Assembly (NCBI RefSeq): GCF_030384885.1
Contig: NZ_CP128614.1
Length of the DNA: 64,000 bases
From: Escherichia coli
GTDB taxonomy: Bacteria > Pseudomonadota > Gammaproteobacteria > Enterobacterales > Enterobacteriaceae
Reading direction: 5' to 3' (one strand)
Shown: positions 24,001-27,000 of the stretch, piece after piece
Layout of the letters: each line of letters starts with the position of its first letter
Position numbering within the stretch: the stretch's first letter is position 1
Program-made: the position numbers

Positions 24001-27000
24001 GTTGCGCACGTATTCGGTGAACGCACTATGGCGACGCTGGGGCGTCTTATGAGCCTGCTGTCACCCTTTGACGTGGTGATATGGATGACGGATGGCTGGC
24101 CGCTGTATGAATCCCGCCTGAAGGGAAAGCTGCACGTAATCAGCAAGCGATATACGCAGCGAATTGAGCGGCATAACCTGAATCTGAGGCAGCACCTGGC
24201 ACGGCTGGGACGGAAGTCGCTGTCGTTCTCAAAATCGGTGGAGCTGCATGACAAAGTCATCGGGCATTATCTGAACATAAAACACTATCAATAAGTTGGA
24301 GTCATTACCGGAGAATTGTATCATTAACAGTCTAGTTCTAACGACTACCACTTTTAAGTATGTATTGAGCCAGTTTTATATTCAGGCACACCATATTGCA
24401 CTCTAGCTCTTTCATCATTCTTGAAGAACTCTTAATTAAGTATTCTTCAAGTGGGCCAGCATATGCCCCTGATGTCACGATCGTTAGTTGCGTAAGAGGA
24501 TGAGTCAAACTCTCAATGCCCTTCAGGATGTCATTCTGGACAGCAGCAATATAAACAGGCGAAGCCGCAATCAAATATTCATCATTCGGGCTGGACTGCA
24601 TTAACTGGCTTATAGTTGCGCAACGGTTATGCTTACCTAGTGATTTTGTGATGGCTTTCCACCAGAGATCATGCCTGAATGGTACTTGATGAAATGTCGC
24701 CTCGTAAGAGGGCACCCGATCTCGACTATTTAAAAACCCCATCCCGGCAGAGATTATCCACAACTCCAGATTTCTGGTTGAGTTTAAAATTTCCTTTGCC
24801 GTAGACCAGTGATTACCTGAATACAAGGACAATGCCGGTACCGCCTGATTACTTCTGGCGTCGTCTACAATGTTACTCCAGGCATATGCTGCGTCGTCCG
24901 GGGTTTGTTTTGGATCTATGTCCAATGTCGGCCAGACGTGGCCCTGATGATTCTTGCCCTTTGTACAGGAAGTGATTAAGTGTACTGAGCGTTCAGAGAA
25001 CATTATCTTCCTTACATACCCATAGAACAGCTTTCTAAGAACGGTGGGCTCGCCTGAAAATTACAAATCAGCCCCTTTCACGGCATCATTTTGATTCTTC
25101 GCGTCTGCCCCCAGTAAGATGACCGGTTTTCTGCATGACAGTGTTATTCCTAACAAACGCAACACAAAACCACGCCAGCCAGAGCAAATTTTTTCATTTG
25201 CTGCGTAAAGCCTATTGTTTTCTCTTTTAAGCTTCGCCCACTCGTTACAGAGGGTAACATCATCAAGCGCTGTTATATGCTTCGCCTCACCTTCGACGAT
25301 AACGGTATGGATACCGTATGCTGTAAATCTCATACTATTTTCCAGAACCCAGTTGCGGTATTCGTCGAGTCCACCTTCGGAACCGGTAGCTCTGCGCCAC
25401 ATTTCAATTTGCTTGTGTGATGGGTCAAGTGTACTTGTCATTGAAGCCTCGTCTCAGCGATAACGCTTGAAATAGCCCGCTTTGGTCATCATGAAATTAG
25501 CCATCTGACTGGCGATTTGATTGTATCTTACTCATAGTGCCCTACCTATAGGTTAAAAAGGGGCATTTTCGCTTTATAGCGTGTTCAGCAGCATCAATCC
25601 TCCCAAGAAAGGCTGGCTTATTAAGCCGGTCCATCATTTTCTGTATATCTCTCATCAATTTTTATATCCGCCCTGGAGTGCACCGTTCAAGCACACCGAT
25701 TAGGCAGATAGTCACTAGTTAACTCTTTACTAGTGACTAAATTCCATTGATATACGTGACAACGTCACGTCATGAAAGCTTATAAATGCCTATTTTTCAT
25801 ACAATGGGATTTAATTAGGAGTAAATCCCATAGGCTTACATAAGGATGACAATTAAAAGCGTTAAATATCAACCAGATAGAATGATTACCCCCAATTAAT
25901 GGGCTCATCACATTATTTCACTGGCTGGGGTTATTGCTGGCATATCTGAAAGTGCTAATATGTTAGTCATTAGTAATTAGTAAAGCCTTTACTAAACGCG
26001 TTTCTACGTAAATTCTATAGGTTTTATAGTGTCCTACCTTTGCTCAAATCAAAATGTTCTGACATACCAAAATGGAGTGTAAAATGACTCAAAACCAGGG
26101 TTCTGAGCCAGTACCGGCGAGCCGGACAGGGCAGCTCATCAGCGCCCGGGATATGGCCATGCAGAAATTCGAAGAAGGGATGCGGTTAATCTCGGAAGCG
26201 TCGGAACTGTGCGGTCTCTCTCTCTTCACCAGCAGAATTATGCAGCCCAACGCATTTGGTCTTCCGTCGTCACTGGATCGCACCATCGAGGAGGGGCGTA
26301 AGGAAATTGACCGTAAAACGTGGAAAAGGCTCTTTGAAGAAACAGGTATGGACCGGTACTGGAACCATAAGCAAAAAGAAGCCTTTAACGAATCCCTTCG
26401 TACGGATCCGCCCGTCGCTTCCCTGGAGATTGTTAAGGGAACATTACAGCATGCACTGGCTAACAGACGAGACACCCTTGCAGAAGGTTTCGTTGATGTT
26501 CTCAACAAGCTTGACCGAAGTTTCAAAAGCAATGCCAGGCAATATACAATGCCAAAAAAGCTTGTTCTTCGGGGGATTTTTCCTGGTGTGAACGTGCTGA
26601 GGTACAACGGTTTCTCGCAGGACAATCACTTTTGTTTACGCGACTTTGAGAATATTGTATGCATCTGTTCTGATACTCCAACACCTGCAACCGGCGGTGG
26701 GCTGAGTATGGTCGACAGGCTGACGGCCATGAGAAATACAGAATTCACAGGCGAGGTCAGTGATGAGAATGGCTGGCGGTGTCGCCTGTTTGAGAATGGA
26801 AACGTTCATATTTGCATCGACAGTATCTCGCTTCTGAATGCTCTGAACGATCTTATCAGCATATATTTTGCAAACCAGCTTCCGGCCGCAGGAAAAAAAT
26901 GATGATTGAAAATGATAAAGAAAAAAGCCTGAACGATGCTACCCCGCCAGAGGTGCAGAATGACATCCGCAGCGAATCCACTGAAAAATCAAAGGAAATG

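Follow-up and report, generated by a model that had tools for sequence, protein, structure and literature searches.

Repressible plasmid promoters with palindromic operators are a well-known kind of element. The KorA and KorB operators of IncP-1 plasmids are short perfect palindromes in the promoter regions of maintenance genes, kfrA included, and KorB OB sites are present in IncP kfrA promoters. TlpA of the Salmonella plasmid pSLT, a member of the KfrA_N family composed of a head and a coiled coil, is a temperature-sensing autorepressor. KfrA itself, known from the IncU plasmid RA3 and the IncP-1 plasmid RK2, joins a small N-terminal helical head to a long coiled-coil tail within 300-400 aa; in RA3 it is an autorepressor that acts on five 9-nt repeats (three of them direct, the other two inverted), which are located around the -10 element and are unique in the plasmid, and KfrA proteins interact with segrosome proteins (PMC7783346). 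Here we analysed a 640-bp spacer between two divergent genes, which start at 25441 on the minus and at 26084 on the plus strand of a 64,000-nucleotide stretch of Escherichia coli DNA (contig NZ_CP128614.1; this whole stretch is called the window, and all positions without other indication refer to it). On its right side the spacer is followed by an operon consisting of a DUF4942 gene and the gene of a 401-aa coiled-coil protein. Our results indicate that the spacer is probably the upstream control region of this rightward operon, comprising a sigma-70 extended -10 promoter with an operator formed by a palindromic island.

Reading the sequence, we found all features that an earlier inspection of the spacer (the original prediction) had listed, namely its AT-richness (GC content 0.33-0.45), a GTCACTAGT-N9-ACTAGTGAC palindrome at 25711-25737, the perfect arms of which are really 11 bp long, an ACGTGAC-aac-GTCACGT palindrome, and two direct-repeat motifs, here called motif 1 and motif 2, near its two ends (Table 1). 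Two perfect palindromes had been missed, ATGGGATTTA-N8-TAAATCCCAT and TTAGTAAAG-c-CTTTACTAA. Counting perfect inverted repeats with arms of at least 7 and a spacer of at most 12, we observed five in the spacer, where 2000 dinucleotide shuffles gave an expectation of 0.58 (P about 5e-4); three of them had arms of at least 9, compared with 0.047 expected, and no shuffle reached three.

We followed these palindromes, which mark four islands, through a comparison set of ten diverged lineages comprising IncHI2, IncHI1/R27 and metagenomic relatives. The IncHI1 plasmids, including R27, have a syntenic locus with proteins that are ~63% identical. When the head of the coiled-coil protein served as query in an exhaustive search, a small family of 16 representatives emerged, whose contigs provided the further syntenic loci L050, L053, L055, L057/L058, L059 and L060, and a metagenome scan for island 3 added two more lineages, L018 and L047; a contig scan with the DUF4942 alignment returned a single, irrelevant locus, and a word-indexed protein search with the head domain returned fragments only. 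The four islands occur in the same order across the lineages, the DNA between them is unalignable, and the spacings are variable between islands 2 and 3 (44-78 bp) and between island 3 and the -10 (118-164 bp). Because the palindromic islands are conserved over ten diverged plasmid lineages, we consider the region to be dense, evidently selected cis-regulatory DNA. The opposite view, that this is an AT-rich, H-NS-coated, insertion-tolerant spacer of no specific function whose palindromes arose by chance or are relics, could point to the low GC content and to the many transposons that have inserted independently into the spacer, as well as to its truncations, but we give it next to no credence: the excess of palindromes speaks against it, and it is already contradicted by the conservation data, since the islands, their order, their symmetry and their spacing to the -10 have been kept in lineages with a protein only 26-42% identical to that of the window.

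Table 1. Positions of the features in and around the spacer (window coordinates)
Feature	Coordinates	Strand	Remarks
126-aa hypothetical open reading frame, left neighbour	25061-25441	-	IncHI2-specific; outside the conserved module
Motif 1, ATAGTGCCCTACCT overlapping CTATAGGTT	25534-25554	+	Lineage-specific, not conserved
Terminator-like GC-rich hairpin, GGCTGGCTTATTAAGCCGGTC	25611-25631		IncHI2 only; between motif 1 and island 1
Island 1, TAGT-box site (TAGTCAC TAGTTAA ... TTTACTAG TGACTA)	25709-25739		11-bp perfect arms in the window's lineage
Island 2, ACGTGAC-aac-GTCACGT	25754-25770		Core GTGAC-N3-GTCAC at 25756-25768 invariant
Island 3, ATGGGATTTA-attaggag-TAAATCCCAT	25804-25831		10-bp dyad, best conserved block
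Conserved ATCAA core (TATCAA), weak IHF-like element	25867-25872		Low confidence
Predicted -35 of P_right, TTGCTG	25934-25939	+	TTG invariant (5-lineage alignment); 16-17 bp from the -10
Predicted extended -10 of P_right, TG-c-TAATAT	25953-25961	+	TGCTAAT invariant in 5 lineages
Island 4, operator-like heptads (TAGTCAT TAGTAAT TAGTAAA) and palindrome TTAGTAAAG-c-CTTTACTAA	25963-25995		Palindrome at 25977-25995
Semi-conserved stretch, ACGCGTTTCTACGTAAATT	25996-26014	+	Directly follows island 4; ACGCG ... CTACGTGAATT in most lineages
Motif 2, CTATAGGTT-tt-ATAGTGTCCTACCT	26015-26039	+	Predicted 5' untranslated region; not conserved
TGTCC, target-site duplication of the Tn7-like sil/pco transposon	26030-26034		Empty site in the window, within motif 2
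DUF4942 gene	26084-26902	+	First gene of the rightward operon
401-aa coiled-coil protein gene	26899-28104	+	Conserved ~100-aa N-terminal helical head, long coiled coil, conserved C-terminal motif

The two palindromes of the original prediction behaved differently in this comparison. The GTGAC-N3-GTCAC core of island 2 was found in all 11 lineages examined, combined with six different spacers (AAC/ACC/GTT/AGT/ACT/AAG), and it is unique both in the window and in all 180 kb of R27, where 0.14 copies are expected, whereas the palindrome of island 1 is perfect only in the lineage of the window, the TAGTCA and TTTACTA boxes being what all lineages have in common there. Island 3 showed symmetry in 93% of its arm cells across 10 lineages, and in L053 both arms carry a G to C and a T to A change, resulting in the altered half-site ATGCGATATA. 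For island 4, which covers ~+1 to +30 of the predicted transcript, dyad symmetry was kept in 81.5% of the cells and four pairs were changed on both sides. Moreover, islands 1 and 4 have the half-site CTAGTAAAG in common, and this varies jointly: L050 exhibits the same A-to-G change in both islands (TTAGTAAGG), and in L053 both have been changed to T(C/A)ATAACT. No second copy of any island was detected in the rest of the window or of the 180-kb plasmid R27, and since the islands recur nowhere else in these sequences, we take them for parts of a local circuit and not of a regulon.

Upstream of island 4 we identified a predicted promoter, P_right, with transcription starting near 25968. Its -10 has counterparts in L050 (TGGTAAACT), L053 (CATAATCT), L057 (TGTTATAAT), L059 (TATAAT) and L060 (TGTTACATT), and a -10-like hexamer lies 20-26 bp upstream of the centre of island 4 in 10/10 lineages. 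As expected for a sigma-70 extended -10 element, TGn was present in 8/10 lineages and a TAnnnT hexamer in all ten, at a fixed distance from island 4. This comparison demonstrated the conservation, order and symmetry of the elements and the fixed spacing from the -10 to the operator. A search for a leftward promoter identified no conserved one. Between island 3 and P_right, A209-T210-C211-A212 of the ATCAA core, a weak element of integration host factor (IHF) type, are invariant in the five-lineage alignment; a perfect WATCAANNNNTTR occurs there in two lineages only, and the orientation of the core varies in other lineages.

The original prediction had assigned the spacer a shared, possibly complex regulation of both flanking operons. 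A complex regulatory region is borne out by the conserved islands, and its sharing is not, as the conserved module accompanies the rightward operon only and the left neighbour changes in almost every lineage, being a 126-aa open reading frame (ORF), a DUF6884 gene, a 494-aa protein, an FRG protein, IS110, a 151-aa protein or a TonB-receptor fragment. Given that the left gene differs between lineages, we assign the module to the rightward operon and not to both. On that side, L047 has no DUF4942 gene, and the module stands directly in front of the coiled-coil gene; the DUF4942 gene of the IncHI1 locus L006 (5001-5813) has an in-frame stop at codon 152, and it is unannotated in L006 as well as in R27 (~145.7-146.5 kb). 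The coiled-coil gene is intact in L006, R27 and L047. Thus, we conclude from these sequence comparisons that the module is, as far as they can predict, the control region of the operon encoding DUF4942 and the 401-aa coiled-coil protein.

The same comparison bears on the direct-repeat motifs, which the original prediction had regarded as operon-proximal sites upstream of each gene; in its model the ATAGTGYCCTACCT/CTATAGGTT motifs would be promoter-proximal sites by which one regulator co-controls both divergent operons. The motif pair is indeed hard to obtain by chance, since a 14-mer direct repeat with at most one mismatch arose in 3.9% of 20000 shuffles and, together with the displaced 9-mer, in 0.5%; neither motif recurs elsewhere in the 64-kb window, and each copy is at most about 100 bp from a start codon. 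However, the motifs mutate freely within IncHI2 (CCCTACC to CCCAACC, ATAGTG to ATAGGG or AGAGGG, CTATAGG to CTATTGG) and have no counterpart in IncHI1 or any other lineage; with respect to the divergent genes their orientation is direct, with no mirroring; motif 2 follows the conserved promoter instead of preceding it, and in at least 151 plasmids a Tn7-like sil/pco transposon interrupts it; finally, the left gene that would be co-controlled is not conserved. Co-control through these motifs is therefore very improbable, and we read the motifs as a lineage-specific duplication that serves no conserved role. By eye, a possible weak promoter pointing left can be made out on the minus strand (TAGGTA, 17 bp, TACAAT), whose -35 may coincide in part with motif 1.

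Alignments from a plasmid BLAST of the spacer ended exactly at both motifs. The interpretation of these breakpoints as att sites or as ends of a small mobile module was rejected, as they proved to be insertions of the Tn7-like sil/pco element and of Tn2. We also rejected the possibility that the 478 bp between the 14-mers are a repeat-flanked insertion, given that the islands are ancestral throughout the lineages and that the repeats are missing from all the others. The Tn7-like element is 32 kb long, contains tnsABCD together with sil and pco, and is present in other IncHI2 plasmids, its junction sequence occurring in at least 151 plasmid records. In two IncHI2 lineages it has the same orientation, and its junctions, ...GTGTCC/TGTCCGAGG (duplication TGTCC) and ...GGGTCCTAC/TGTCCGAAG, are 3 bp apart (window 26030-26037; L005 1010-1020 and 33420-33432; L066 4085-4100), an offset that points either to a hot spot or to insertion having happened twice independently. 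In 675 E. coli chromosomes the element is found at its chromosomal site, the 3' end of yhiN; on comparing the flank of the yhiN junction with 25970-26034 by eye for a TnsD-type att site, we saw no evident similarity. At the other end of the spacer, Tn2/TEM-1 (blaTEM-1) is inserted at ~25531, beside motif 1, in L003, and other plasmids have independent insertions or truncations in the left half at about 25531, 25619, 25643 and 25683; plasmids can evidently do without the left part of the spacer.

Conserved palindromes can also be read as nucleic-acid hairpins, serving as single-strand initiation signals, as a single-stranded DNA (ssDNA) promoter active when the plasmid enters a recipient, or as stem-loops of the 5' untranslated region (UTR) or of a small RNA. 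Folded as ssDNA, a 301-nt core is far more stable than its shuffles (z = -5.9 and -4.5); symmetry-preserving double changes suit hairpins equally well, and the neighbours (methyltransferases, nuclease, H-NS homologue) resemble early-entry genes. We nevertheless hold this reading to be distinctly unlikely. The ssDNA fold consists of only four short independent hairpins and contains no Frpo-type long stem with -35 and -10. The complementarity of island 3 is lost in L050 and L059, each half still being near consensus, and islands 1 and 4 share and co-vary a half-site sequence, which hairpins do not require. A small RNA reaching from motif 1 to the hairpin at 25611 and a structured 5' UTR were both dropped as unsupported, neither being unusually stable (z about -0.6 for both; z = -0.6 for a 101-nt RNA across the 25611 hairpin); the whole window has no Rfam match at the gathering score of Rfam 15, and the R27 locus is ~38 kb away from mobH/mobI. 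Since the arms of island 3 in L050 lose their complementarity yet stay near the consensus half-site, we favour recognition of the duplex by proteins.

Under this duplex-binding reading, the TAGT/TAGTAAAG boxes deserve attention first: they begin 2 bp past the predicted -10, recur at island 1 and are unique in R27. The operator of TAGT/TAGTAAAG boxes in island 4 would start right after the -10 and extend over the first ~30 transcribed bases, so that a repressor dimer bound to it could block initiation or promoter clearance. Three further dyad-symmetric sites, predicted to bind proteins, lie 130-260 bp upstream, namely island 1 with its TAGTAAAG half-site, GTGAC-N3-GTCAC, and ATGGGATTTA-N8-TAAATCCCAT; the repressor on island 4 may loop to island 1, and islands 2 and 3 would be occupied by other factors. 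As the binder of the TAGTAAAG boxes we propose, tentatively and by analogy, the coiled-coil protein of the operon itself, acting as a KfrA/TlpA-like autorepressor; it is the likeliest single candidate, if still somewhat short of an even chance.

The analogy rests on several features. As in KfrA, a small helical head at the N terminus of the 401-aa protein precedes a long coiled-coil tail (residues ~135 to 380 match coiled-coil families only, such as SMC, crescentin and lamin, and are kept in nine homologues); within the head, a helix that ends in an aromatic residue and E/D-E-Y/H comes after a Gly-rich turn, and the gene is situated behind a predicted promoter ringed by short repeats in both orientations that are unique in the plasmid. 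The RA3 KfrA operator also resembles island 4, where the -10 is adjoined by three direct TAGT heptads and then by TAGTAAAG as an inverted pair. With TlpA the protein shares size (371 versus 401 aa) and architecture, and the head motif gave its best local alignment, a weak one, with TlpA. Unlike KfrA, however, it has no KfrA_N match in Pfam, and the profile similarity is insignificant; its head is ~100 aa long and starts after a 35-aa variable tail; its gene is usually the second of the operon, behind DUF4942, with no kfrB/kfrC or korA/korB context; and the boxes are of a 7-9 bp TAGT type, not TGTATTGTA, with three extra dyads upstream. The islands are like the KorA/KorB operators in being short palindromes in a promoter region, and differ from those in that IncP operators are found at many promoters and the islands are single-copy in R27 and in the window.

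A number of observations weigh against this proposal or against the control region as a whole. In the head, hmmscan detected neither KfrA_N (PF11740), even at E<=10, nor any other Pfam domain (by comparison, TlpA scores 5.6e-17). The segment 'FKVHWLRNAVGG-SFARSQEMFAEY' is the only part of the head that hhalign aligned to a helix-turn-helix (TlpA, P=0.048; KfrA_N alignment, P=0.016), with probabilities of 1-3%, which are not significant, and we regard the likeness of the LRNAVGG-SFARSQEMFAEY segment to the KfrA_N helix-turn-helix as suggestive at best. The head is predicted to be all-helical; its AlphaFold model, with a pLDDT of 65, has low confidence and gave no fold match in Foldseek against the PDB, and a profile search of PDB sequences with the head returned nothing. 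The L053 protein differs exactly in the LRNAVGG-SFARSQEMFAEY segment (GGRIHNATTAF), and the L053 boxes differ too, but this co-variation of protein and operator is seen in a single lineage, the most diverged one, and could reflect overall divergence. P_right scores only 7/12 against the consensus, which is why a simple consensus scan of the spacer reported no promoter, and the island segments of distant lineages were chosen by hand or by eye. Finally, the 32-kb transposon parts the promoter from the operon in many plasmids that have retained the genes; control from P_right must therefore be dispensable at least there.

For islands 2 and 3, we consider the SsoII-type N-terminal domain of a nearby Dcm methyltransferase and a ParB-type protein as candidate binders. 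SsoII-type domains bind palindromes of a 5-N3/5-5 type resembling GTGAC-N3-GTCAC, and, as in SsoII-type C5-methyltransferase/C protein systems with their operators, the Dcm protein has a DNA_meth_N regulatory domain; unlike in those systems, no island 2-like palindrome was found in the promoter region of dcm itself. This Dcm gene (29954-31381, minus strand) looks like an orphan, its DNA_meth_N domain being an SsoII-type regulatory helix-turn-helix, and it is kept together with DUF1173, a 55-aa ORF and a thermonuclease gene in all lineages. In R27 (L062), we noted at 45191-48288 a second, unrelated pair, a ParB-type helix-turn-helix protein (385 aa) and a DUF4942-methyltransferase fusion (558 aa).

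A global plasmid protein of ParB/KorB or other type on island 3, and perhaps on island 2, would turn the module into a plasmid-positioning or partition-linked site. Beside parA/parB, R27 (25530-27920) contains ~30 tandem repeats of 52-54 bp with the core GGGGTTAAATGCCACG, and this core, TTAAAT(G/C)CCAC, resembles the island 3 half-site TAAATCCCA(T/C), three copies being exact over 9 nt; the interaction of KfrA proteins with segrosome proteins (PMC7783346) would fit as well. The consensus of the array, however, differs from island 3, agreeing at 8/11 positions, and with 30 copies a chance match of a variant is therefore likely; nor does R27 have a second island copy, and thus no plasmid-wide regulon. 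We find a partition-linked role quite improbable.

Returning to the operon's control region with its operator, a more ambitious version of it can be formulated, which we judge unlikely as a whole. It would be an undescribed IncHI-like switch in which the coiled-coil repressor, KfrA/TlpA-like and possibly temperature-responsive, loops islands 1 and 4, and a second factor binds the GTGAC-N3-GTCAC and ATGGGATTTA dyads, gating establishment genes on host entry. The establishment block would include DUF4942, DUF1173, the Dcm methyltransferase and the nuclease, with the Sfh H-NS homologue adjacent. If this were true, the coiled-coil protein would found a new head-domain family outside KfrA_N.

As to the surroundings, a plasmid search matched a 3.9-kb stretch around the spacer to 1182 plasmid records at 95-100% identity, most of which are conjugative plasmids of ~250 kb from E. 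coli, Salmonella and Enterobacter with the type IncHI2A/MOBH. The spacer lies downstream of the ter operon and hipBA, the window being backbone of an IncHI2 plasmid; a phage origin was excluded, the phage collection having given zero matches. Relative to other IncHI2 plasmids (L004), ~8 kb are missing here, including a helicase gene and the gene of a plasmid H-NS (Sfh-like). The 126-aa ORF to the left has no Pfam or NCBIfam family and no counterpart at the same position in IncHI1 or the other lineages. It is followed by the DUF6884 gene, which is adjoined by an IS1 copy (23600-24330); NCBIfam leaves the window's DUF6884 copy unmatched, and a fragment of the gene in L007 (3825-4205) is named 'tgtA5 cluster protein 2' in one RefSeq record, a label hinting at a 7-deazaguanine DNA-modification context for this left-hand gene. 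Beyond the 401-aa gene, on the opposite strand, come DUF1173, the 55-aa ORF, the Dcm methyltransferase and then the thermonuclease. Literature searches yielded no account of the region or of DUF4942/DUF1173 in IncHI plasmids; in the literature that could be searched, neither the module nor the coiled-coil family appears to have been described.

Among the major carriers of mcr, extended-spectrum beta-lactamase and heavy-metal resistance genes are the IncHI2 and IncHI1 plasmids, which are known for temperature-dependent behaviour and whose backbone is mostly annotated as hypothetical. For this backbone our analysis defines a predicted promoter and operator with base-level coordinates, and places the widespread sil/pco Tn7-like element inside the leader of the rightward operon. 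It also provides a candidate regulator, a small Pfam-less coiled-coil family, which may control a gene block of methyltransferases, a nuclease and DUF1173. If the analogy to KfrA and TlpA is true, their regulatory design would extend to the MOBH/IncHI plasmids and could bear on the temperature-dependent biology of this group.

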